Positions 1 to 63,080 are shown, counted from the first letter of the stretch. The stretch is 64,000 bases of DNA from Planctomycetota bacterium (GCA_036338595.1 JAYZBV010000073.1:14635-78634); one strand, 5' to 3'. Translations and numbers: made by a program. Notes: generated by a model not told the origin, from the sequence alone.

Positions 1-1170
1 TTTCCTCGCACTCGAGAAGAGTTGTTTCAATACGATGTCTTGATACTTGGAGATATCCGTCCTGACGCTCTGTCGGTGAATCAGAAGGAGTGGATAGTAG
101 AGTTTGTGGATGATCATGGTGGTGGCCTGGTGTTCATCGCCGGCCAGTGGTTCATGCCAAGGAGGTTCAGAGGCGATCCACTCGAGCGAGTTCTGCCGGT
201 GGAACTCGAAGAAGCAGATGATCGTGGATCGATGTCGAGGGACCTGGTGGAACCATTTCATGTCCAACTGACTCCCGAAGGGCTGGAGCATCCCGTGATG
301 CAACTGGTATCGGACGGTGAAAAAAACAAAGAACTCTGGCAGTGGCAGGGCCGCAGCGATCAAACGATGCCGGGTTTCTTCTGGTACCAGCGAGTCAAGA
401 AACTCCGAAAGGGTGCCGTGGCGCTTGCGGTTCATGAGTCTGATGAGCACTTCACCTATGGACCGAGACCGATCTTCGCGTTCCAGTACTTCGGTCGAGG
501 TCGTACCTTCATCTCCCTGACCGATGACACATGGAGGCTGAGGAGGTTGGTCGGGAACCGCTGGTTCTATCGCTTCTGGGGTCAGGTCACTCGATTCGTC
601 GGAGCTGCCCGGTTGCTGGGTCCCTCGAAGCGGTTTTCGGTGAGTGTAGATCCGAGGGAAGTGGTACTCGGAAATGAGGTCAAGATACTGGCCAGGATGC
701 TGGGACCCGATTTCAAGCCGACCTCGGAAGAGGAAGCCCTGCTGAGGATGGAGCGAGTCGAGGATTCAGATGGCCGGGCGCTGGAAATTCAGGCGGTCCG
801 AAACCCTGCACGGCCGGAGTACTACGAGGCCTCCATCGAGGCGCGAGCTCTGGGTGAGCACAGAATCTCCCTCATCGATCGCGAGGAGGAGGTCGCCAGT
901 ACCGTGTACAGGGTCGTTGTACCCCAACTGGAGTATGCGGATCCGAGGATGGACAGAACGCGCCTCCAGCAGATTGCAACCCTCTCCGGTGGCAAATATC
1001 ATGAGGTGACGGACGCCGCAAATGTTGCCGAGGAGGTGGAAGCGCTGGAGAGAGAAGTGCCGATTTCCGCCGAGCGAGAGCCTCTCTGGGATCATCGCTG
1101 GGTTCTGGCCCTCTTTACGCTGCTGCTGACTGTAGAATGGATACTGCGAAAGGTAGTCCGGCTCCCTTGA
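1..1170 (+). CDS. C-terminal part of a large membrane protein with a class-I glutamine-amidotransferase-like domain, typical of MoxR/vWA-type clusters; 5'-truncated by the window edge
   Basis: Frame is open from base 1 (FPRTREELFQYDVLILGD...GGGLVFIAG...FGRGR...DDTWR). It ends in the typical 'PLWD...LLTVEWILRK' transmembrane tail. The stop overlaps the next TTG start. Confidence 0.7.
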   Translation, partial: FPRTREELFQYDVLILGDIRPDALSVNQKEWIVEFVDDHGGGLVFIAGQWFMPRRFRGDPLERVLPVELEEADDRGSMSRDLVEPFHVQLTPEGLEHPVMQLVSDGEKNKELWQWQGRSDQTMPGFFWYQRVKKLRKGAVALAVHESDEHFTYGPRPIFAFQYFGRGRTFISLTDDTWRLRRLVGNRWFYRFWGQVTRFVGAARLLGPSKRFSVSVDPREVVLGNEVKILARMLGPDFKPTSEEEALLRMERVEDSDGRALEIQAVRNPARPEYYEASIEARALGEHRISLIDREEEVASTVYRVVVPQLEYADPRMDRTRLQQIATLSGGKYHEVTDAANVAEEVEALEREVPISAEREPLWDHRWVLALFTLLLTVEWILRKVVRLP

Positions 1171-3269
1171 AGAAATTCCTCACCTCCACTGACTCCAGCC
1201 ATTTGAAACAGCGATCAGCGTTTCGTCCTCTACTGCTGACCTCGTTGCTGCTGTTTTCTGTCAATGGCACTCTCCGAGCGGATATCGGCTCAGCCTTGAT
1301 CCCCTTGCTGGTCGGGGCCGACGGGGTCATCCAGGAGTATCGGAATGCGGTGTCTCACATCGATTCAGGGGAAGTCCTCAAGGGAATCCGCAAGATCCAG
1401 GTTCTTCATGAAACCGTGTGGGGGAACAACCCCCAGATGGAGGCCGATTCCTCCGATAACTGGCGAGTCGTCAGGCCACTTTCAACTCGAATCATCGAAA
1501 GATTGCGAGCACTGCCTCCTGAGCACCAGCAGATGTATCGCAAGGAGTTCGACATTCAAGCTCGCTCCGTGCTCGATAGAGCACTGTCCGACATGGACCC
1601 GGAAGCGCTCCTGAGAGCGGCAGATATCTACCCTTTGACCGATGCGCGGATCGAAGCGCTGGTCGCAGCAGGCGACCTTTTCCTCGAGCGAGACCAGCCT
1701 CAACTGGCGGTCGGTGCCTGGGATCTAGTACTGCTTGAACTGGCAATTGGCGACCAGAATGCCGCTCGCAGTGATGAGTTATCCATCTCCTTGAAGCCTC
1801 GTCTGTGGCTGGCACTGATGCGGGCAGGGAAATCGCAGCGAGCAGAAAAACTGAGAAGCGAGGCGGGTGACCAGGGGCAACCCTTCGAAGAGAGTTCCAT
1901 CACTTCAATGCCTTCCGATCAGGCGCATGTTCCGGAAAATCCCATCGAAGAGGGTGTGATCGCCTGGAAGACGCACAACTACTCGCAGCATGTTGCCTAC
2001 GGTACCGGGCGAGGAAGAAGTTACTATCCCGACCTGACGGGTTCGATCCTGACACCCGGGATCGGCCAGGACTGGGTAGCCATCGCAACTTCGAGGCGCC
2101 TCCTTCGTTATGACCTTCGTACCGGAAAACTGGTAGCCAACGATAACCTCCATTCTGGAGCGCCGTACTTCGAGGAGCAGGATCCGGATTCTCGCCTGTG
2201 GGCGGCGACCGACGGTTCATTACTGATCTCCAGTTACGTCGCCTGGGCCAGTCGCCGTGAAGATTACCTGGGATTCGACATCCAGGTCTCTCTCCCGTCG
2301 CGTGCCATGAAGTGCTGGGATGTGAACGGTGATGGAAGGCTGCTCTGGGACACATCGGATCGGTCAAACGGCGATGCGATGCTCAGAAAAAGTTCGTTCA
2401 ACTCGACCCCGGTGATCAAGGACGGCAAGGTCTGGGCACTCGGTTGGAGGAAGAGCGGCTACATCGATGTGACTCTCTGGTGCCTGGATGCGAGAACAGG
2501 AAAGAAGATCTGGTCTCGACCGATTGTCGGTAACCAGGTGGAACTGACGATGTTCGGTGAACCGGCACGAGAGCCGATTCTGGGGTCGGTACTCCTCGCA
2601 GACGGCATGGTTTATTGCTGTTCCAACCTCGGTGTGATTGCCGCGATGCGCGCATGGGATGGGCAGGTGCAGTGGATAGCCGAATACGATCGTCAATCCA
2701 AGCGAAGTTACCGAAGTCGTTACCGTCAGCCTCGAAGGGGCAGAGTCTGGGCGCCGAATCCACTTGTATTGCATGACGGAAAGTTGTTCGTGACGCCTCT
2801 CGATTCGAGTCAACTCCATGCCATCAATGCCGAAACCGGTTCCATCATCTCGCAAGTCGAGGGTAAGGGACTGGGTCCTCATATGCTCGGTGTGACCGAT
2901 GGAAGGCTGGTTCTGTTTGGTGATCTTCTCACCTCGATGATGGTGAGCGATATCGGGAGATCCGAACAGTGGAATCAGGCTCTCACTCGATCCCCAGCCA
3001 CCGCCAGGCCAGCCCTGGTAGAAGGTGGAGTGATCTACATCAGCGTCAATGAATCTGCGTTGTATCAGCAAGCACTGGACCACACTCATGCGACAAGAGT
3101 GATCGCATCCCTCTCCGACGGCCCGAAGCAGCGCCCCGGCATCGGCGTCTTCCGCGCGGAAAGTTCCATCGGTGGGCGAGTGGATGTTGTCGGTGATCGC
3201 ATCATCCTCACCAATCTCATCCAGGCCACGTGCCTGACCCAGCGACTGGCGATCTGGGAGGATAAGTGA
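1167..3269 (+). CDS. Exported PQQ-type beta-propeller repeat protein with an N-terminal helical/TPR-like region
   Basis: Signal-like hydrophobic stretch; repeated Trp-docking motifs (LWCLDARTGKKIWS, MRAWDGQVQW, LHAINAETG). The TTG start at 1167 is chosen for its TTGA overlap; the track gives 1137. Confidence 0.7.
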   Translation: MKKFLTSTDSSHLKQRSAFRPLLLTSLLLFSVNGTLRADIGSALIPLLVGADGVIQEYRNAVSHIDSGEVLKGIRKIQVLHETVWGNNPQMEADSSDNWRVVRPLSTRIIERLRALPPEHQQMYRKEFDIQARSVLDRALSDMDPEALLRAADIYPLTDARIEALVAAGDLFLERDQPQLAVGAWDLVLLELAIGDQNAARSDELSISLKPRLWLALMRAGKSQRAEKLRSEAGDQGQPFEESSITSMPSDQAHVPENPIEEGVIAWKTHNYSQHVAYGTGRGRSYYPDLTGSILTPGIGQDWVAIATSRRLLRYDLRTGKLVANDNLHSGAPYFEEQDPDSRLWAATDGSLLISSYVAWASRREDYLGFDIQVSLPSRAMKCWDVNGDGRLLWDTSDRSNGDAMLRKSSFNSTPVIKDGKVWALGWRKSGYIDVTLWCLDARTGKKIWSRPIVGNQVELTMFGEPAREPILGSVLLADGMVYCCSNLGVIAAMRAWDGQVQWIAEYDRQSKRSYRSRYRQPRRGRVWAPNPLVLHDGKLFVTPLDSSQLHAINAETGSIISQVEGKGLGPHMLGVTDGRLVLFGDLLTSMMVSDIGRSEQWNQALTRSPATARPALVEGGVIYISVNESALYQQALDHTHATRVIASLSDGPKQRPGIGVFRAESSIGGRVDVVGDRIILTNLIQATCLTQRLAIWEDK

Positions 3270-4366
3270 TGAACACCGGAACCAGGTGGCTAATACTGGT
3301 GATGTCCGTGTTGCTCGTTTTTCCGGCACCAAGTGCTCTGACCTTTGCCGTAGACGATGATGAGCCGACTCGAATCATCGATTTGAAGTTGCAAGAGCGA
3401 GCACGCCTTGCCGCAGAGAGGGGTCTTGAATTTCTCAAACAGACCCAGAATGCGGATGGGTCCTGGACCGACAAGATCGGTCGGAAGGTCCATTACGAGT
3501 ACCGTGGAAGACTTGGCAAGCACGTCGGGGTGACCTCGCTCGCCTGCCTTGCGTTTCTCGCCCAGGGGAGTCTCCCGGGTCGAGGAAAGTACGGCGAACA
3601 GGTTGAGAAGGGCCTCGACTTCATCCTGAGGACGGTTCAGACCAACGGATTCATCTCCACCGATGAGTCAAGGATGTACAGCCACGCCTTCGCCACTCTA
3701 TTCCTTGCCGAGGTCTACGGCATGACCGGAATGGAGAAGGTCAAGGAGAAGCTAAAGAGCGCTGCAGGGCTGATCATCCAGGCGCAGAATGACACGGGTG
3801 GTTGGCGCTACCAGCCGGGAGCGGATGATGCGGACATGAGTATCACCGTCTGTCAGGTGATGGCATTGAGAGCTGCCAGAAACGCTGGTATCCACGTGCC
3901 GAAGGAGGTGGTAGATGCCGCCATCAAGTACGTGCGAGATTCCTCGAACATAGAAAGTGGCGGGTTCATGTACCAGCATGAGGTCGGACCCACTGGACGG
4001 GTGCAAAGATCGAGGACCACTTTTCCTCTCACCGCTGCGGGGATCACTGCGCTCTACGGTGCTGGGGTTTATGAGGACCGCATCATCGATCGTGGGTTGA
4101 TCTATCTGCGCCACCATCGGCCGAGAAGATACGAAGCTCTCAATACCTTCGACTACTACTACGGGATGTACTACGCAACCCAGGCCGCTTTCCAGCGTGG
4201 CGGCGAGTTCTGGACTTCATGGCACAGGGACACATGGCGCGACATCCTATCTCTGCAGAATCCGGATGGGTCGTGGCAAGATCTTGTGGGACCCAATTAT
4301 GCGACTGCGATGGCGTGTATCATCCTTGAGATTCCGTTCCAGTACCTGCCGATATTCGAGAGGTGA
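3266..4366 (+). CDS. Prenyltransferase/squalene-oxidase-repeat (alpha/alpha barrel, QW-motif) exported protein
   Basis: Signal peptide; QW-like repeats QNADGSW, QNDTGGW, QNPDGSW; MYSHAFATL; ends LPIFER. No DXDD cyclase motif. Confidence 0.8.
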   Translation: MMNTGTRWLILVMSVLLVFPAPSALTFAVDDDEPTRIIDLKLQERARLAAERGLEFLKQTQNADGSWTDKIGRKVHYEYRGRLGKHVGVTSLACLAFLAQGSLPGRGKYGEQVEKGLDFILRTVQTNGFISTDESRMYSHAFATLFLAEVYGMTGMEKVKEKLKSAAGLIIQAQNDTGGWRYQPGADDADMSITVCQVMALRAARNAGIHVPKEVVDAAIKYVRDSSNIESGGFMYQHEVGPTGRVQRSRTTFPLTAAGITALYGAGVYEDRIIDRGLIYLRHHRPRRYEALNTFDYYYGMYYATQAAFQRGGEFWTSWHRDTWRDILSLQNPDGSWQDLVGPNYATAMACIILEIPFQYLPIFER

Positions 4367-6549
4367 TCGTGATCGATCCGATGGAAACAGCCTCGATCGA
4401 GAGACCTCGCCTGGCACTCCAGAAGATCCGGGAGTTGCGAGGGCGTAGACGGTTGATGCGATCCATCACCGGAGGATTCCGCTGGTTGGTGGTGGTGATT
4501 GCATGCGTCTGGCTGATGTTCTTGCTCGATTGGTTTGCAGATCTTCCGATGGCACTCAGGGTCGGGCAGATCGCAGCGACCGTCACGCTGCTACTGATTA
4601 CCTTTCGTGCCATCTTGTTGGCAGCGAGGACTCCTGCGACAGAGGATCAACTCGCCTCCATGGTAGAAAAAGCATCCAGTGAACTCGAAGACGCTCTGAT
4701 CACAGCAGTTCAATTGACAGACCCTGAGAATCCTCGGCGCCATCTCTACAATCCGGAACTCATCGAAGAGACCGTCAAGATCGCAGAGAGCCGAATGGCC
4801 AACATGCGGCCAGGACGATTGCTATCCTGGAGCCGTGCCTTGTCGACGATCGGCCTGCTGTCTCTGCTGCTCTTTCCTGCCATCATCGGTGGTTGGCTGC
4901 GGCCTGATCTTCTTCACACCTTCGTCGAGCGCGATCTATTGCTCGGAAATGACCCCTGGCCCCGTGCCTATGATCTGGTGGTGACGAGCCCGAAAGATAC
5001 AGATCTAGTGGTGGCAAAGGGGACATCATTGGTGATCGATGTACTCAAGACTCGTGGAGGAAATGCCCGTGCATTCCTGGATGTGGTCTTCCCTGCAGTC
5101 GAGGGGCGAAGGGAAATGAAAGAGGAACTCGCACTCGACCGCAAGGGAACAGCTGGGTTTCGCCATGTCTTTCAAAATCTTCAGAGAGACATCCAGTTCC
5201 GGGTGGAATGCGGAGATTTCAGTGGCCAGTGGTATTCCATCCAGGTTCGGGCCAGGCCTCGAATCGAGGAGATGGCACTTCAGTACGAATTTCCAGAATA
5301 CACGGGACTCTCTTCAGAAGGCGAAGACTCGCGATCCGGGAGTGGGCACGTCAAGGCCCCGACCGGCACGCGTGTCAACTTTGTCGCACGCACCAGCATA
5401 GATGTGAAGAGTGCGGTTCGAATGGAAGCCCGACCCAGTGGTGATGGTGAAATCGTGACCGAGTCGACGATAACGGTCGAGGATGGAAACACACTCCGGG
5501 GAGATTTCATTGCAGAAGCGGATGCACGCTGGTGGATTTCCCTCGACTCTGAACAGGGATTCACTAACGACAATCCGATCATCTGGCGTATCGCGGTCAT
5601 CCCCGACAGGGCACCGGAGGTGTCCATCGATGAACCGGGTCAGAACATCGAGATCACCCCCCGGGCGCTGTTGGATCTTTCGGTGCTCGTTCGAGATGAT
5701 TACGGAGTCCAGTCCGGAAATCTGATCTTCGAACCGGAACTGGAGGGAGAATGGGAACCGAGGGTGATCCCGCTCGATGAGATAGGAACTGCCGAGGGCC
5801 TGCACGCAGATGGATCCCAGACGCTTCAGATCGACCTGGCAACATGGCAACTGAGCGCGGGTCAGCGTGTTCAGTATCGAGCCACTGCCACGGATGCACT
5901 CGAACAACTGGGTACCAGCAGGACCTGGATACTGAGCGTTCTCAGCGAGGAAGAGCTGGAACGAGTGACCCAGGACGAACTGACGCTGCTCAAGGAGAGG
6001 CTGGAGGAGACCTTCAGTGTCCAGAGAGAGGTTCGGAGGGAACTCGAAGACGTGCGCGAAGCGTTGAATTCAGGCGAAGCGGCGATCGATCAGGCTCCGC
6101 TGGCCCGCCATGCTCGTGGTGGACAGGATCGGGTTTCAACCCGGGTGGAGGATGCTGCAGAGAGGCTTGCCACCATCGCAGAGAGATTGCTTCGAAACAG
6201 GATGAGTGACGCATCCGAGCTTGCGTGGATTCAAGAGTTGAAGGATCGCATCGATGCACTGGGATCCGAAACGATCACACCTGCAAGGGAGCAACTGGAG
6301 AAGTTGGCTGCTCGCTCGGCAGCAGGAGAAGCGACCGTTGAGGAAACGGATGAGGCGCTCGATGCAGTTCGTCGCGTCGAACGTGGACTCGCGGATGTGG
6401 TTGCTGATCTTCAGGAGTGGGGCGACCTGCGCACGGTGATTCGTAAACTTGAGGAATTGCTTCGGTCGGAGAAGGACCTTGAACATCGGATCGAAGAGAA
6501 GGTCAGAGAGTCTCTCGGAGGAGACAGCACGGAAGGAGAAAATCGATGA
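4363..6549 (+). CDS. Membrane-anchored protein with Ig-like beta domains and a C-terminal coiled coil (DUF4175-like)
   Basis: Three N-terminal TM segments; 'PDRAPEVSIDEPG' and 'VRDDYGV' motifs; helical acidic C-terminus; GTGA/ATGA overlaps with both neighbours. Confidence 0.65.
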   Translation: MIVIDPMETASIERPRLALQKIRELRGRRRLMRSITGGFRWLVVVIACVWLMFLLDWFADLPMALRVGQIAATVTLLLITFRAILLAARTPATEDQLASMVEKASSELEDALITAVQLTDPENPRRHLYNPELIEETVKIAESRMANMRPGRLLSWSRALSTIGLLSLLLFPAIIGGWLRPDLLHTFVERDLLLGNDPWPRAYDLVVTSPKDTDLVVAKGTSLVIDVLKTRGGNARAFLDVVFPAVEGRREMKEELALDRKGTAGFRHVFQNLQRDIQFRVECGDFSGQWYSIQVRARPRIEEMALQYEFPEYTGLSSEGEDSRSGSGHVKAPTGTRVNFVARTSIDVKSAVRMEARPSGDGEIVTESTITVEDGNTLRGDFIAEADARWWISLDSEQGFTNDNPIIWRIAVIPDRAPEVSIDEPGQNIEITPRALLDLSVLVRDDYGVQSGNLIFEPELEGEWEPRVIPLDEIGTAEGLHADGSQTLQIDLATWQLSAGQRVQYRATATDALEQLGTSRTWILSVLSEEELERVTQDELTLLKERLEETFSVQREVRRELEDVREALNSGEAAIDQAPLARHARGGQDRVSTRVEDAAERLATIAERLLRNRMSDASELAWIQELKDRIDALGSETITPAREQLEKLAARSAAGEATVEETDEALDAVRRVERGLADVVADLQEWGDLRTVIRKLEELLRSEKDLEHRIEEKVRESLGGDSTEGENR

Positions 6550-9500
6550 TGATGACCAAGCAGAGGGGGCCGCTACTCCTGTTGTTGATCCTCCTCCTGG
6601 CAGTTGTCCCATCGCTGTTATCCGCACAGACGGGTAATCGCCTCGCTCGGTTGCAGGAAGAGGCCAGAGAATACCTCAGGTCGTTGCAAGTCCAGATGGA
6701 GTCACTCGCGGAGCGGATCGAGAGCGAACAACCAGAGGATTCAACTCGTCTCAGAAATGCAAGGGAACGGATTGTCAGGGACCTGCTTGAAGATGATATG
6801 CGTTCAATTGCCGTAGCGCTCGAGACTGAGGACTACATCGTTGCCCTCGACACGGTACGCAAGGTTCGGTCAAACCTGGAACTGGTGCTGGCGATCCTGG
6901 AGGATCGCAATATCGATCCGGAACAGGTTGAGAGTCGACTGGAGCAGGTTGCCCAGAGATTGAAGCAAATCGGTGAGATTGCGGATGCGCAGCGATCCCT
7001 TCGAGATCGCACTGCTACTGCAGAATCGGCGCAACAGGATGTGCAAGATCTCAGGGATGTGAGTCAAGCGATCGATGAGATCGCCGCACAACAGCAAGAA
7101 CTTCTCGGAAGCGAAAACTCGTCGGAAGACGAAGCAGAGATGGGGCAGGCGCAGGAGATCTCCAATGAGGCTCGTCGGGTTGCCGATGACCTGTCCCGGG
7201 AAGCGCGCCGTCAGCAAGGAATCGAAGCGCTGGCTCGCAGGGTCGATCAGATCCGCAATGAAGTGCGACAAGATGCACGCGAAAGCGAAAATCTGGGATC
7301 GGAGCAGAACTCGGAGACGAGCGCCGCGATGCAGCGTTTGGCGCGCCGTGCCAGCGAGCAGAGTGCGAAGATCCGCCAAGCCCAGCAGAGTGTAGATGCG
7401 TTGCGCCGCGAAGCGGCTGCAGATGCGGAAGACGGGGACGAAAATGCCTCTGCGTCGCTGGAAGCTCTCGACAGGGCCGGCGAGGCACTGGAGCGATCGG
7501 AGAGCGCAGCCAACGGCATCGCAAGCCCTGATGATGCTCGTCCAGGGGACGCCTCGACTCTTCGCGATGAGCAAGGCGAGGCGCTCGACGAGGCGAGCAA
7601 GGCGCTGCGCGAGGCTGCCGATTCGAACGGAGAGCGAGCGGGGGCGATACAGCAGCGGCTAGAACAGTTGCGCGAACGACTCGACCGATGGAGACAGCGG
7701 CAGCAAGAAGGCGGTGGGTCAGGTCTTGACAACAAGGCACAATCTGCCGCAGAGGATCTGGAAGCAGCATCCGGGGCACTGGATCGGGCCCAGCAATCGG
7801 GCCAGCAGTCGGGCCAGCAGTCGGGCCAGCAGTCTGGTCAGCAGTCCGGTCAGCAATCAGGCCAGCAGTCCGGTCAGCAGTCCGGTCAGCAATCCGGTCA
7901 GCAGTCAGGCGAGCAATCGGGCGAGCAATCGGGCGAGCAATCTGGCGAGCAATCTGGCGAGCAATCTGGCGAGCAGTCTGGCGAGCAGTCTGGCGAGCAG
8001 TCGGGCGAGCAGTCGGGTGAGCAGTCCGGCCAGCAATCGGGCGAGCAGTCGGGTGAGCAGTCGGGTGAGCAATCGGGTGAGCAGTCCGGCCAGCAATCGG
8101 GTGAGCAGTCGGGTGAGCAGTCCGGCCAGCAGTCGGGCGAGCAGTCGAGTCAACAGGAACGCATCGAGCAGATGCAGGATGCTGCCGAGAAGGCGCAAGA
8201 CGCGGCAGAGAAACTATCATCTCTTGCAGAAGACTCGGCGCAGGACCGTCCTTCTTCGCAGCAGCAATCGCTTGCGGAACAGACCAGCGAACTGGAAGAC
8301 AAGCTCGACCGCCTCGAGAAAAAGCTAGCTGCAGATCAGAGCCTCTCCCCCGAGGAAGATGAAAAGTTGCGCAAGAAGGTTGGCGAGGCTCGCCAGGCAC
8401 TCAGGAGTGCTCGTTCAGCGATGCAGGGGGCTGCCGAGCGGATGAGTGGCGGTGAGTCTGCAGAATCGGCGCAGCAGGCTGCGCAGGATGCCCTGGAGAG
8501 AGCGAAGGATGCTCTCGAAGGTTCAGATCAGGATGCACTCGAGCGATTGCGAAGACAGCAGCAAGAGACACCCGAACTGGCCCCTGAGCAGGACGAACTG
8601 GAACGGCTCACTCGCAAGCGAGCCGAGGAATCGGAAGAATCGGACCCCGAGGCTTCCGAGGGGCTCGAGGGCGCAGCCCAGGCGATGGATGAGGCTTCTG
8701 ATAGTCTCGAAGGCGGAGATTCCTCACAAGCGCGAGAGAAACAGGACGAGGCGCTCGAGCAATTGCAGCAGGAAATGGACGCGCTGCAACAAGAGGAGCG
8801 AGAACTGGTCGATCTGAAGGTGGAACAGGAACTGATCGACCTGATCGGAACCATCACCGACATGGCAGAGGAAGTCGATTCGATTCTATCGGAGACAAGG
8901 ACCATCGCTGAAGCGCTGGGGGATGCTCGTCCAGGCAGGGCTCAGCGAGCGCGAATGAAGCGGCTTTCAGCTCGTGTCGCAGATGTGGAAGATTCAGGAA
9001 ATGAAGTGCTCGCAGCTCTTGAACGGGAGGGCGTGAGGGTATTCTCCTACATCGTGAGGGATCTTCTCTCTGATCTTGCCGAGGCGAGGGAAGGATTGAG
9101 CCCTCGAAGCGATGCAGGTTCCGATACCCAGCTTCTACTCGCCGAGGCACTCGACGCTCTGCGCAAGTTGAGGGATTCGCTCGAAGAGGAACTTCGTCGG
9201 CGTAATCAACAGCAGCAACAGCCCCAGCAACAGCAGCCGCCCCAGCAGCAGCCTCAACAGCAACAACTGGTACCGCCAGCGGCAGAGTTGTTGGCGCTCA
9301 AGCGAATGCAGGAGGAAGTCCTGCGCAGGACACGAAGGCTCGATGGAATGCGGGGTGAGGAAGGCGAGTTCGATGCTCTCGAGGAGCGAGTTCTGGAGAG
9401 GCTGGTGCAGAGACAGGGCAGCATCATAGAACTCACCGAGCAGATCGCCGAGGATCTGCGCAAGCAGATGCAGCCTCCGATGGTCCAGGAAGAGGCCCCT

Positions 9501-9554
9501 GAGACCGATTCTGAGACAAAAGGGGAGCCTGGCGGATCGAAGGGGGACGACTGA
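6546..9554 (+). CDS. Exported very long coiled-coil protein with a central (Q/E)QSG tandem repeat
   Basis: 1002-aa ORF with a signal peptide ([17 protein letters not shown]), E/Q/A/R-rich heptads, and poly-Q/P before '[15 protein letters not shown]'. Confidence 0.8.
7791..8150 (+). repeat. Coding tandem repeat: 30 x 12 bp units encoding QQSG/EQSG
   Basis: Units are (C/G)AG CA(A/G) TCN GG(C/T), arranged 10 QQSG, 10 EQSG, then mixed, ending EQSS. Synonymous variation between units. Confidence 0.95.
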
Positions 9555-9583
9555 TGGCCGATACATCCATCGGAGATTCGGGG

Positions 9584-9589
9584 TATAAT
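9584..9589 (+). promoter_or_regulatory. Possible sigma70 -10 element upstream of the candidate selenoprotein gene
   Basis: Perfect TATAAT in the ~120-bp gap before the ATG at 9677. No convincing -35. Confidence 0.3.
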
Positions 9590-9676
9590 GAGGAAGAGCC
9601 GCAAGTGTGCTTCCCTGGACGCATCCTGTTCGATGATCGGGAGCGGGGAATGGTTTGCGGTGGAAGGATTGGATCG

Positions 9677-10441
9677 ATGAAGAAGTTCACCATGCATGTT
9701 TCCGTCTTCGGATGCGCCTTCCTGTTGCTGTTGCTGACCGTTCCAGTGATGGCCCAGGAGGATGGAAAACCCGAGACTGACTCCACCGGGCCTGCCGTTG
9801 AAGTGCCGGAGTCCGACCCCGCCGATACACCAGACGATGAGTTTCCTGTCGATATCGACCCGCTCGACATCCTCGATTCAGCAGATCCGCTCGGCAAAGT
9901 CGGCTCTCTCGTGGATGAGATCTCCCGAAACATGAAGGAGATCGAGAGCCTCCTCGAGGAAGACGACACCAGTGAGGGGAACCAGTCGGTTCAGCAGCAA
10001 ACTCTCAGCAGAATTGATGAACTGATTACAGAGGTGCAGCGTCTCACCGGGACGTGACAGAACGGCGGCTCCCCGTCGGGGAGCCCCTCAAGGAATGCTG
10101 GGTCTTCAAAATCTGAATCCGTTCAGAAGCAGTCAGGTCGTCAAAAGAACGTCGCCTCACAAAAAGACGGGGGCGAGCAGAAGCAGTCCTCGAAGGAGCA
10201 AAGTGCAGGAGAGCCAAAGGACGGTAGCGAGCAGGTTCGTAATGACCGCACCACAGATGGCGAACTTCCACCTTCCGAGGTGGGAGAGTTGCGTGATCAG
10301 AGGGGTGCTGGCCGTTGGGGTAGGTTGCCGAAAACTGTGATCCAACGGATGTATGACAACGGCAGAAGGCAGTTGCCCGAGAAATACCGTATCTTGCTTG
10401 AGGATTACTTCAGAAAACTGCCGGAGCGTTCCCCGCGTTGA
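9677..10441 (+). CDS. Exported protein with an in-frame TGA (10055-10057); candidate selenoprotein of 254 aa with Sec127
   Basis: Signal peptide MKKFTMHVSVFGCAFLLLLLTVPVMA. After the TGA the frame stays open 127 codons, to ...GRWGRLPKTVIQRMYDNGRRQLPEKYRILLEDYFRKLPERSPR-TGA. That stop overlaps the next TTG start (TTGA), like other genes of the operon. Confidence 0.7.
10067..10085 (+). promoter_or_regulatory. Putative bacterial SECIS hairpin
   Basis: GGCTCCCC-GTC-GGGGAGCC, a perfect 8-bp stem. The loop begins GU, with its G 18 nt after the TGA. No U-tract follows. Confidence 0.6.
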
Positions 10442-11613
10442 ACGAAGACCCTGCACCTATAGCACCAGAATGCCACGACGAATCGAATCCAGAGGATCCT
10501 CCCTCTATCGGGAGACTCCATCGCTGGCTCGTTCTTGTTCTACTGATGTGGTTTGCAACGATGCAGATCGCTGAAGCATCATCACCTGAACCCCATCCAA
10601 CTGACGATACAAAAAGCGGTTCAAGTTCCAGTGCCGTGACACTAGGGGTTCCCCACGACTCTCGCAGTGAACTCGCCATCCGTCGCGGCATCTCGCTGCT
10701 GGTGAAGCGTCAAAATGGCGTTGGCGCATTCTCCAGTTCCTATCCGTTGGCGGTCACATCGCTAGGTGGAATGGCTCTGCTCGGCGGTGGAACAGAGTTC
10801 GGGGTGGGGAAAGAGGGAGAAGCGCTGGAACGAGCAGTCGATTACCTGACTGCCGCCGTGCGTGCAGATGAGCGCGGGTATTTGCAGGATCGTGGTGCGA
10901 CCAGATCGCGGATGCATGGCCATTCCTACGCCATCCTGTTTCTTTCGCAGGTGACAGGGCAACTTCCAACACCTCAGCGAGAGCGCCGGCTTCGAGGGGT
11001 CATCCGTTCAGGAGTGGATCTGATGCTCTCCTGTCAGACCCAGCGAGGCGGATGGGGTTATGAACCGGACGATCCGCTCGACGAGGCTTCACTGACGGTC
11101 TGTTGCCTGCAGGCGTTACGAGCAGCAAAGGAAGCGGGGATTGCCGTTCCAGTCGATCCGATCGCACGAGCGATGAAGTATCTCAAGGAGTGTTGTTCAG
11201 AGGATGGTTCATTTCGGTACTCGCTTACTCGAGGAACTACCAGGACCTCTTTCGAGATGACTGCCGCTGCGTTGTCGACGATGGATGCCGCTGGCGAGTT
11301 TGAACTGGATGAGAGAAAGCGTGGACTCGCATTTCTTCGGCGATCAATTGAGAGCGCCGGTCGTAGCAAGAAGGGCGCATTCCAGGCGGCAAGGAATTTT
11401 CCCTTCTACGGCAACTTCTACACCGGTCAGGTGCTCCAACAATCTCGTGGAGCGACATGGGATCGTTGGACCCGATCGGTATGGCCACGGCTGCTCGAAC
11501 TTCAAAAAGCAGACGGGGCCTGGGAAAGCCGTTTTGGAGATGAGTATGGCACGGCGATGGCGCTGCTGATCCTGGAACTTCCCCTGGGATACTTGCCGCT
11601 TTACGACCGCTGA
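10438..11613 (+). CDS. Second prenyltransferase/squalene-oxidase-repeat exported protein (paralog of 3266-4366)
   Basis: QNGVGAF, QTQRGGW, QKADGAW repeats; RMHGHSYAIL; ends LPLYDR. The start may lie downstream. Confidence 0.8.
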   Translation: MNEDPAPIAPECHDESNPEDPPSIGRLHRWLVLVLLMWFATMQIAEASSPEPHPTDDTKSGSSSSAVTLGVPHDSRSELAIRRGISLLVKRQNGVGAFSSSYPLAVTSLGGMALLGGGTEFGVGKEGEALERAVDYLTAAVRADERGYLQDRGATRSRMHGHSYAILFLSQVTGQLPTPQRERRLRGVIRSGVDLMLSCQTQRGGWGYEPDDPLDEASLTVCCLQALRAAKEAGIAVPVDPIARAMKYLKECCSEDGSFRYSLTRGTTRTSFEMTAAALSTMDAAGEFELDERKRGLAFLRRSIESAGRSKKGAFQAARNFPFYGNFYTGQVLQQSRGATWDRWTRSVWPRLLELQKADGAWESRFGDEYGTAMALLILELPLGYLPLYDR

Positions 11614-62123: not shown

Positions 62124-63080
62124 TTGGTGGCACGACCTGAGCATTCTGGAAGTGGCTATTCGCTGCTTCCCATCGATGCCGAGCATCTGAGCCAGTTGGT
62201 CGAGCAGTTGACACCCGAGCAGCACCAGGTGACGCAGAAGTCGGGCACCGAGGCGCCCTTCTGTGGCGGCTTCCTGGCGGAGAAGACTGCCGGAATATAC
62301 GGTTGTGTGGTCTGTCATCTGCCGCTGTTTCGCTCCGATCAGAAGTTTGATTCGGGAACAGGTTGGCCCTCCTTCTTTGACACCTTTGACCCGGACCATG
62401 TATGTCAGAAGCCAGACGGTAGCCAAGGAATGGAGCGCATCGAGATCACCTGCGGGCGCTGCGATGCGCATCTGGGCCATCAGTTTTCGGATGGCCCGCC
62501 ACCGACGGGTGTTCGCCACTGCCTCAATTCGGCCTCACTTCGTTTCGTCAGCGAGGGGCAAGAGATTCCCCGTGAAGCCCCACGGCCGGGAGAAAATTCG
62601 ATTCCGAAAGCACGTGCCTGGTTTGGTGGCGGCTGATTCTGGGGAGTGGAGGATCGCTTTGCGAGCCTCGATGGCGTCGTCGATGTCATCACCGGTTACA
62701 TGGGAGGCGAGCAGGACGACCCCACCTACGAACAGGTCTGTACTGGCGAGACCGGTCACGCAGAAGCTGTGGAAGTTCACTACGATCCTGAAGTGGTCAG
62801 CTACCGAGACCTGGTTCAACTCTTCTTCGAGGTCCACGACCCGACAACTGCAGATCGACAGGGGCCAAACAGGGGCAGCCAGTATCGATCCGTGGTGTTT
62901 TGCGATGAGCCACAAGAAGTCGAGCAGGTCGAGGAAGGGATGCAGAAACAGATCGATTCCGGCACATACGGTGAGAGACCCATCGTGACCCAGGTCATCT
63001 CGCCGGCGCCAACCTTCTGGCGGGCGGAGGAGCACCACCAGCACTACTACCAGAAGCACCGGGGCTTTTGCTCACATTGA
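62124..63080 (+). CDS. msrAB: Bifunctional methionine sulfoxide reductase MsrB-MsrA with selenocysteine (TGA 62634-62636) at the MsrA active site; 318 aa, Sec171
   Basis: MsrB: GTEAPF, CVVC, DSGTGWPSF, CGRC, HLGH, RHCLNS. It continues in frame through WFGGG-TGA-FWGVE, then GYMGG, TGHAEAV, HDPT, QYRS, AEEHHQHYY. Confidence 0.9.
62649..62690 (+). promoter_or_regulatory. Two tandem hairpins after the MsrA UGA; candidate SECIS
   Basis: GAGG-A-TCGC-TTT-GCGA-G-CCTC (62649-62669), then GATGGCGTC-GTC-GATGTCATC (62670-62690, two G-U pairs). Confidence 0.45.

Follow-up and report, generated by a model that had tools for sequence, protein, structure and literature searches.

The window analysed here is a 64,000-nucleotide stretch of DNA from a Planctomycetota bacterium (GCA_036338595.1 JAYZBV010000073.1:14635-78634). 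Positions 9677 to 10441 of it very probably form one gene, coding for an exported protein of about 25 kDa in which the UGA at 10055-10057 is decoded as selenocysteine (Sec, U). The features of the locus are collected in Table 1. The TGA directly follows the codons for ...EVQRLTGT, and the reading frame continues past it for 127 codons, as far as the TGA at 10439-10441; these coordinates, first given in an earlier reading made from the sequence alone (the sequence-only reading), were borne out. The same reading had stated that no ATG, GTG or TTG occurs in the first 70 or so codons past the TGA, and that the gene ends in a TTGA overlap with the next one. Both statements agree with what was found: the first in-frame candidate is a GTG at codon 74, and the terminal TGA overlaps the TTG start at 10438. 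The residue context at the UGA is LTGT-U-QNGG, the residues following U being QNGGSPSGSPSR.

Table 1. Coordinates of the predicted selenoprotein gene, its parts and its two neighbours, counted from the first letter of the window. Ratios are synonymous:non-synonymous differences between loci L019 and L021.
Feature	Position	Strand	Description
Upstream DUF4175-like protein, 1002 aa	6546..9554	+	weak Pfam match to DUF4175
Predicted selenoprotein gene, complete	9677..10441	+	254 codons with one UGA-Sec, plus the terminal TGA; translated with TGA = U
Signal-peptide-like N-terminus, MKKFTMHVSVFGCAFLLLLLTVPVMAQ	9677..9757	+	basic, then hydrophobic, ending in ...AQ; Q near-invariant in 24 homologues
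Conserved N-terminal two-helix hairpin	9887..10048	+	AlphaFold2 model; invariant L/E/I/N/Q columns; 27:6
In-frame TGA, predicted to be read as Sec, residue 127	10055..10057	+	conserved TGA; Cys or Ser in TGA-less homologues
SECIS-like hairpin	10067..10085	+	8-bp stem GGCUCCCC/GGGGAGCC; apical loop GUC at 10075-10077
Disordered S/G/Q/K-rich linker	10058..10237	+	pLDDT 42-52, no secondary structure; fast-evolving, 11:32
Conserved C-terminal domain	10238..10438	+	RNDRT...GRWGRLPxTxIxxMYDNGRRxLPEKYRxLLEDYFRKLP (24-sequence alignment); 23:4
Terminal TGA (true stop)	10439..10441	+	overlaps TTG start (10438) of the downstream gene
Downstream protein with prenyltransferase/squalene-hopene-cyclase-like repeats, 391 aa	10438..11613	+	Pfam SQHop_cyclase_C, 8e-09
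SECIS, selenocysteine insertion sequence; pLDDT, predicted local distance difference test score.

The start codon is probably ATG 9677, the alternatives being ATG 9554 and ATG 9692. Gene callers place the start at ATG 9554, overlapping the upstream stop (TGATG) and adding 41 residues (9554-9676). This extension is unconserved in relatives, and the conserved signal peptide starts at ATG 9677.

The TGA is real, and an assembly error can be dismissed: metagenome contig X2 (record 9), obtained independently in another study, spans positions 9400-10258 with no differences from the window; the sequencing check called for by the sequence-only reading was thus made on an independent assembly (a contig, not reads), which carries the same TGA. 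Runs containing the stretch are seawater or marine metagenomes from nine studies. A metatranscriptome contig (X17) from a relative about 90% identical spans 9707-10189 and shows only occurrence in an RNA library, the comparisons with contigs X11 and X17 being uninformative at the TGA position itself. The genome that contains the window is a 2.9-Mb draft in 114 contigs, 88% complete and with 7% contamination, a quality that would leave room for an assembly or sequencing error, or for a recent pseudogene mutation, at the TGA. This explanation is refuted both by the identical contig and by the retention of the TGA across three genera (22 of 22 genomes) and in further lineages, and it is given practically no weight.

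In these 22 genomes, belonging to the genera g1, g6 and g7 (57-89% identity to the query), the TGA occupies a single alignment column. It is found at the same junction between helix and linker in G002, G004, G005 and G006, in the second copies of G007 and G010, and in the distant G035 and G237. When all six frames were searched across the order, the gene was found in 33 of 34 genomes, the match rows showing one internal TGA in 26 cases, two in 2 and no stop in 7. In a sample of the phylum the family was present in 69 of 401 genomes. The junction reads GGUPGGGGUPF in G035 and KKLPPUGGGGG in G237; other distant members carry CxxC (L069, L074), a single C (L079, L082), or neither C nor U. Second copies in G007 and G010 contain two Sec codons (NKTUPSGGVUPKTG). 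A two-Sec subfamily can be recognized, formed by L050 (G010:C111), L051 (G007:C18) and L084 (G035), with the UGAs 18 nt apart (KTUPSGGVUPK; GGUPGGGGUPF). Two further candidate carriers were rejected: G260, counted with one TGA, has no readable WGxLP frame, and the TGA counted in G044 lies off the junction, which reads KSSGGGG.

A homologue search with the read-through protein produced 39 matches. Ten of them, which are the full-length homologues, measure 249-308 aa and cover both halves at 40-46% identity, and 28 are forms of 143-201 aa corresponding to the N-terminal half only. Sixteen of the short forms were aligned, and all 16 end at the same column (...LTGT, ...LTGS or ...LSGG). An exhaustive profile search returned 1918 representatives at E <= 0.001, and 238 at E <= 1e-10. 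Within the best 150 representatives, 25 have their own C-terminus at profile position 120-124, and 9 consist of the C-terminal half alone; the 19 that were fetched out of the 25 all stop exactly at the end of helix 2. From the homologue, order, phylum and profile searches, it follows that the split annotation is widespread and that the Sec forms are diverse; most likely, gene finders routinely halve the family in marine planctomycetes.

The annotation in two pieces corresponds to a different reading of the locus, in which the TGA is a genuine stop that ends an exported helical protein of 126 aa, and the 127 codons downstream are a separate small gene or the decaying remnant of a formerly fused one. 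It agrees with the work of the gene callers (28 N-terminal halves out of 39 matches, 9 C-terminal halves among the best 150 representatives), with the use of TGA as a normal stop in this genome, and with the location of the UGA exactly at a domain boundary. Several observations speak against it. All 28 carriers have 123-143 open codons in this frame past the last internal TGA, the other two frames holding stops in most of them. The C-terminal domain is under purifying selection (23:4 in the comparison of Table 1), so coding sequence is conserved past the UGA. No start codon is conserved beyond the TGA; in L027 and L031 a stretch of 97 codons, which reaches into the conserved motif, is free of ATG, GTG and TTG. 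The linker is always in frame and stop-free, and its indels are always multiples of three. The TGA-less homologues, finally, are single fused proteins. The genuine stop is hence held to be very improbable, and the view that both halves are made as one protein, the C-terminal one under purifying selection at the protein level, is well supported by the alignments.

The sequence-only reading had described a perfect hairpin, GGCTCCCC-GTC-GGGGAGCC, 9 nt past the TGA, with a loop beginning 18 nt downstream. The hairpin was recovered at 10067-10085; counted from the TGA, its loop G (10075) is base 18. Downstream of the TGA, a GUC-loop hairpin is present in 22 of 22 close carriers. In a 24-sequence alignment, 88.4% of the cells are paired, versus 84.0% in shuffles and 44-67% when the 3' arm is slid; none of 500 shuffles reached the observed pairing values. 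Four stem pairs of this alignment are altered on both sides with pairing kept; the changes on both sides include the loop-closing C-G to A-U in L026, L030 and L046, the base G-C to A-U in L038, and a C-G to U-A in both L039 and L040.

The codons that make up the hairpin are unusually constant. All 22 genomes share TCC and GGG, and 20 of them TCG; the codon flanked by TCC and TCG ends in G throughout (CCG in 12, TCG in 8, CAG in 2). Third-position entropy is 0-0.44 bits within the hairpin, against 1.5-1.9 bits for the codons of invariant T, L, V and G residues in the rest of the gene, and the amino-acid changes that do occur in the hairpin (Pro to Ser or Gln) keep the pairing. The hairpin codons being frozen at synonymous sites, the constraint acts on the RNA.

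The same geometry is found, with different stems, in the other lineages, where the loops are GUC, GGUC(A), GUU or GUA. The hairpins are GGCGCCCA-GUC-UGG(U)GCGCC in L046, CCGGCG-GUA-CGUCGG in L047, GGCUCU-GGUC-AGAGCC in L048, and GCGGC-GGUCA-GCCGC in both L049 and L085; in L050, L051 and L084 each UGA has its own hairpin, the second one with a GUU loop. Over all TGA sites, the best hairpin has a G-initial loop and an offset of 9-17 nt in 28 out of 30, and an uninterrupted stem of at least 6 bp lies within 48 nt in 26 out of 30. Among the TGA-less homologues, a stem of at least 6 bp is present in 7 out of 25, at scattered offsets, and only one of these 7 has a G-initial loop. The expectation, voiced in the sequence-only reading, of a conserved or covarying hairpin only in TGA carriers is therefore confirmed as to conservation and covariation, and not as to exclusiveness, hairpins being rare rather than absent where the TGA is missing. 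The element has what a bacterial SECIS-type stem-loop should have: a location 3' of the UGA, a conserved G in a small apical loop, and a fixed distance. A scan of positions 9900-10300 against Rfam gave no match near any gathering score.

The genome is equipped for Sec insertion, selA, selB, selC and selD all being found in it, as the sequence-only reading had proposed to verify. The tRNA-Sec scored 67.9 bits and was called by ARAGORN as SeC with anticodon tca; selA scored 526 bits, selB 390 bits, and selD, which itself contains one in-frame TGA (context SCAGUASKL, SECIS loop GGUCG), 349 bits. The genes for tRNA-Sec, selD and selA are clustered on one contig (G000:C72:30645-34795; loci L001, L009 and L016), and selB lies elsewhere (C108). 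TGA is nonetheless the usual stop: of 1080 stop-to-stop frames with 400 codons or more, 696 are closed by TGA, more than by either of the other stops, which rules out a global reassignment of TGA. In the order, selB was found over the cut-off in 32 of 34 genomes, the exceptions being G003 (L045) and G016 (L021). G003 has the CxxC form and no TGA, a pattern that fits loss or absence of Sec use.

The window contains a second in-frame TGA, already noticed in the sequence-only reading, at 62634 within the GGGUFWG of an MsrA gene (62616-63062). In this gene (PF01625, 187.6 bits) the TGA, at 62634-62636, stands in place of the catalytic Cys, so that the MsrA, like the selD product, is taken to contain Sec. 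The open frame also takes in an MsrB-like region upstream, to which the MsrA seems to be fused. Two hairpins lie downstream of this TGA, one with a GUC tri-loop at about 46 nt and a nearer one with a UUU loop.

According to the proposed mechanism, SelB and tRNA-Sec would recode the UGA at 10055-10057 under the guidance of the hairpin at 10067-10085, acting as a bacterial SECIS element; if Sec insertion failed, translation would end at the UGA, and only the N-terminal helical domain would be set free. The UGA might instead be read through without selenium, in a programmed way, by a near-cognate tRNA (Trp, Cys or Arg) stimulated by the hairpin. The inserted residue is not readable from the sequence alone, and many homologues accommodate Ser there, both of which would suit such read-through. 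It is considered improbable, in view of the SECIS-like hairpin geometry and G(U) apical loop, which resembles the SECIS loop of the genome's own selD, of the presence of selB in 32 of the 34 genomes, and of the recurrence at the site of Cys, the chemical analogue of Sec; moreover, selB over the cut-off is missing from two genomes, and one of them, G003, is the order's only TGA-less genome with a clear CxxC form.

For the comparison of residues at the site, the conserved ELI of helix 2 served as the origin of an ungapped count. At site 10, U is found in L046, L047, L049, L050 and L051, and C in L042, L045, P0009, P0010, P0011 and P0014; at site 13, U is found in the gene of the window, in 21 close relatives and in L048, and C in L045 (EKRCSSCSS). 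By this count, Cys residues are found at both U positions, and the correspondence between Sec and Cys is good but not exact. Paired forms occur in relatives, as Ux4C (L049), Ux5U (L050, L051, L084) and CxxC (L045, L069, L074), none of them within a thioredoxin fold. Full-length homologues with Cys or TGA at the junction, which the sequence-only reading had named as the support to look for, do exist, with the qualification that many have Ser. A quick IQ-TREE tree was computed from 63 sequences, leaving out the fragment L053, the unreadable L087, and P0008 and P0010, which by eye nearly duplicate L041 and L042. In this tree the 22 close U-forms form a single clade (Shimodaira-Hasegawa-like approximate likelihood ratio test, SH-aLRT, 99), and the single-U state requires 4 changes, at least 3 of them forced by well-supported branches.

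Of the checks proposed in the sequence-only reading, nearly all favour Sec, and every refuting condition examined from its list came out on the side of Sec. Recoding signals, continuity of the frame and selection on both halves are established by comparison; insertion of selenium at the UGA is what we infer from them. A number of points weigh against it, beginning with the fact that the whole case for Sec is comparative. The Sec/Cys match depends on ungapped counting, because MAFFT, in this low-complexity junction, puts the U of the main clade 4-6 columns away from most Cys. Neither C nor U is present at the site in 23 of the 63 sequences; the place is often taken by Ser or Gly, so that not every homologue needs the residue, an uncommon trait for a catalytic Sec. 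A 71-nt context of the hairpin folds no better than its shuffles (z = -0.6), so that the significance of the hairpin lies in its conservation across genomes only; the apical loop, as drawn, has only 3 nt, and no bulged U like that of E. coli fdhF is evident. The AlphaFold2 model has a mean pLDDT of 56, and the domain boundaries are accordingly approximate. Finally, the TGA carrier G016, 90% complete, lacks selB over the cut-off, probably because the gene is unassembled.

The AlphaFold2 model, calculated on a 249-aa form, contains two helices at residues 66-89 and 95-119 (pLDDT 71-79), and short helices at 214-220 and 230-242 in the C-terminal domain. The Sec would lie two residues past the end of helix 2, and a disordered linker of about 60 residues follows; the position between a helical domain and a disordered linker, suggested in the sequence-only reading, matches the model. 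An acidic, DPLD-rich segment separates the signal peptide from the helical hairpin. In the C-terminal domain the invariant columns of the 24 sequences are G-RWGRLP, Y, G, R, LP, Y, LE, YFR and LP. The protein is predicted from its N-terminal sequence to be exported, and the only Cys lies in the signal peptide, so that the mature chain, as the sequence-only reading had it, would hold a single Sec and no other Cys. A thioredoxin fold with CxxU or UxxC was looked for and not found, the mature chain being devoid of Cys and the model consisting of a helical hairpin and disorder. The absence of a CxxU redox motif holds for this protein; for the family, the Ux4C, Ux5U and CxxC of relatives leave room for a redox or metal pair.

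The gene is the ninth of an operon of ten, with stops overlapping starts, reconstructed from window positions 1-11613 and from L090 8759-14700. The order is MoxR (AAA_3), DUF58, BatA_N, VWA/GATase1-like, PQQ-like propeller, toroid, DUF4175, the 1002-aa DUF4175-like protein, this gene, and a second toroid. Wherever a locus of the same order had enough flank, the neighbouring DUF4175-like and toroid genes were found in synteny, and a toroid gene adjoins the family gene also in 9 distant members of the phylum. The downstream protein begins with a conserved MNED... in relatives. The two toroid ('prenyltransferase') proteins show weak SQHop_cyclase/Prenyltrans matches, and one a faint match to the alpha-macroglobulin TED (E = 0.0095). 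A complex prediction for the C-terminal domain (residues 183-249) with the downstream prenyltransferase-like protein scored 0.01, which gives no verdict either way. In G007 the paralogue with two Sec codons has no MoxR/Bat operon around it; its neighbours are genes for a PA14 plus SQHop-like protein and for type II secretion ATPases.

No function emerged from Pfam, NCBIfam, PDB or ESM Atlas matches. The PDB sequence search with the family profile returned only designed coiled coils, at the helical hairpin, which are uninformative on function, and an ESM Atlas search with the natural homologue P0010 only unnamed Planctomycetota clusters. A best guess is that the selenol serves as a solvent-exposed, tethered redox or metal-binding group, or as an inter-chain selenylsulfide or diselenide staple at the end of the helical hairpin, a guess in keeping with the CxxC, Ux4C or Ux5U of relatives at this spot. 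Because the UGA and its SECIS-like hairpin sit exactly at the domain boundary, they could also make up a selenium-dependent isoform switch, giving the full-length protein in the presence of selenium and the N-terminal domain alone otherwise. Such a switch is thought unlikely; if it existed, the composition of a MoxR/Bat-type envelope complex would be tied to selenium or redox status, and the full-length form would have a selenol tethered through a flexible linker to a docking motif. A bolder version of this idea would have the exposed Sec or Cys accept a modification or cross-link from the neighbouring prenyltransferase-like toroids.

Decoding of the UGA as Sec, if correct, adds a selenoprotein family that is neither a thioredoxin-fold protein nor a metal-cofactor enzyme. 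Its Sec would be placed in an exposed junction that tolerates Cys, CxxC or Ser, and would have been gained or lost at least three times on the quick tree; this tolerance and repeated turnover challenge the assumption that Sec marks a catalytic redox cysteine. A systematic annotation error, by which dozens of public sequence clusters are split into two 'hypothetical proteins', would be corrected. The poorly understood MoxR/Bat/DUF4175 envelope operons of Planctomycetota would gain a chemically reactive component, and with it a handle for work on oxidative stress or metal handling.

Among selenoproteins the family is most likely uncatalogued, in accordance with the impression of the sequence-only reading that it resembled no known one. 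A review of prokaryotic selenoproteomes of May 2026 (PMC13188914 Table 1) counts 119 families and subfamilies and gives a domain model for every one. The read-through protein matched no Pfam and no NCBIfam family at E <= 0.01, and the full-length homologue P0006 no NCBIfam family; with Pfam at E up to 10, 24 members gave low-complexity noise only. Pfam and NCBIfam models thus assign the protein to none of the 119, the families defined by cd or PTHR models not having been scanned directly. Membership of DUF4175 (PF13779) was rejected, with E = 2.3 in 2 of 24 members; BLASTP showed no similarity to either of the DUF4175-like neighbours, and an ESM Atlas lead to DUF4175 scored only 0.75. The C-terminal motif may resemble the C-terminus of DUF4175/TIGR02302 proteins.

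The catalogued 'hypothetical' families (GOS_A/B/C, OS_HP3-5, DG/DW/DF; PMC13188914, PMC2398784) are like the present one in having been recognized from a conserved TGA/Cys pair together with a bacterial SECIS-like element, in having no known function, and in being often marine; the difference is that this family matches none of the NCBIfam/Pfam models assigned to them. GOS_A is the one GOS 'hypothetical' family absent from PMC13188914 Table 1, its sequences being in the supplement of PMC2398784. It was discarded as a candidate, the printed sequences being unrelated and WGRLP, YFRKL and YFRRL being absent from the four supplementary files covered. In Table S9 of PMC4807772, a 'hypothetical' candidate is listed in planctomycete P1, with Cys in Rhodopirellula sallentina; the table gives no sequence and so allows no comparison. 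Planctomycetes are absent from the passages covered of the papers on deep-Sep and BSepDB.

Two kinds of known systems offer closer comparisons. With genes decoded through SelB (E. coli fdhF; the genome's own selD and msrA), this gene shares the in-frame UGA, the Cys homologues, the selA/selB/selC/selD set, and a stem-loop 9-12 nt downstream with an apical G/U about 21-24 nt from the U of the UGA; the GGUCG loop of selD resembles its GUC loop. In fdhF a minimal upper stem-loop of 17 nt lies 11 nt past the UGA, with G23/U24 in the loop and a bulged U17. Compared with this model, the gene differs in its 3-nt loop and in showing no obvious bulged U; compared with SelB-decoded genes in general, it differs in that the Sec lies outside a thioredoxin-like fold or a metal-cofactor site, and in that many orthologues have Ser.

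The second comparison is with the Bat 'aerotolerance' operons of Bacteroidota and spirochaetes, which open with the same genes, MoxR AAA_3 ATPase, DUF58, BatA_N and VWA. In the portions of the literature covered they are described as envelope-associated and linked to oxidative stress, by no defined mechanism, and a search there combining selenoprotein with MoxR, aerotolerance, DUF4175 or BatA found no relevant paper, and so no report of a selenoprotein in a Bat operon. The planctomycete operon differs from them by the addition of a PQQ-like propeller, two toroids, two DUF4175-like proteins and the small protein described here.

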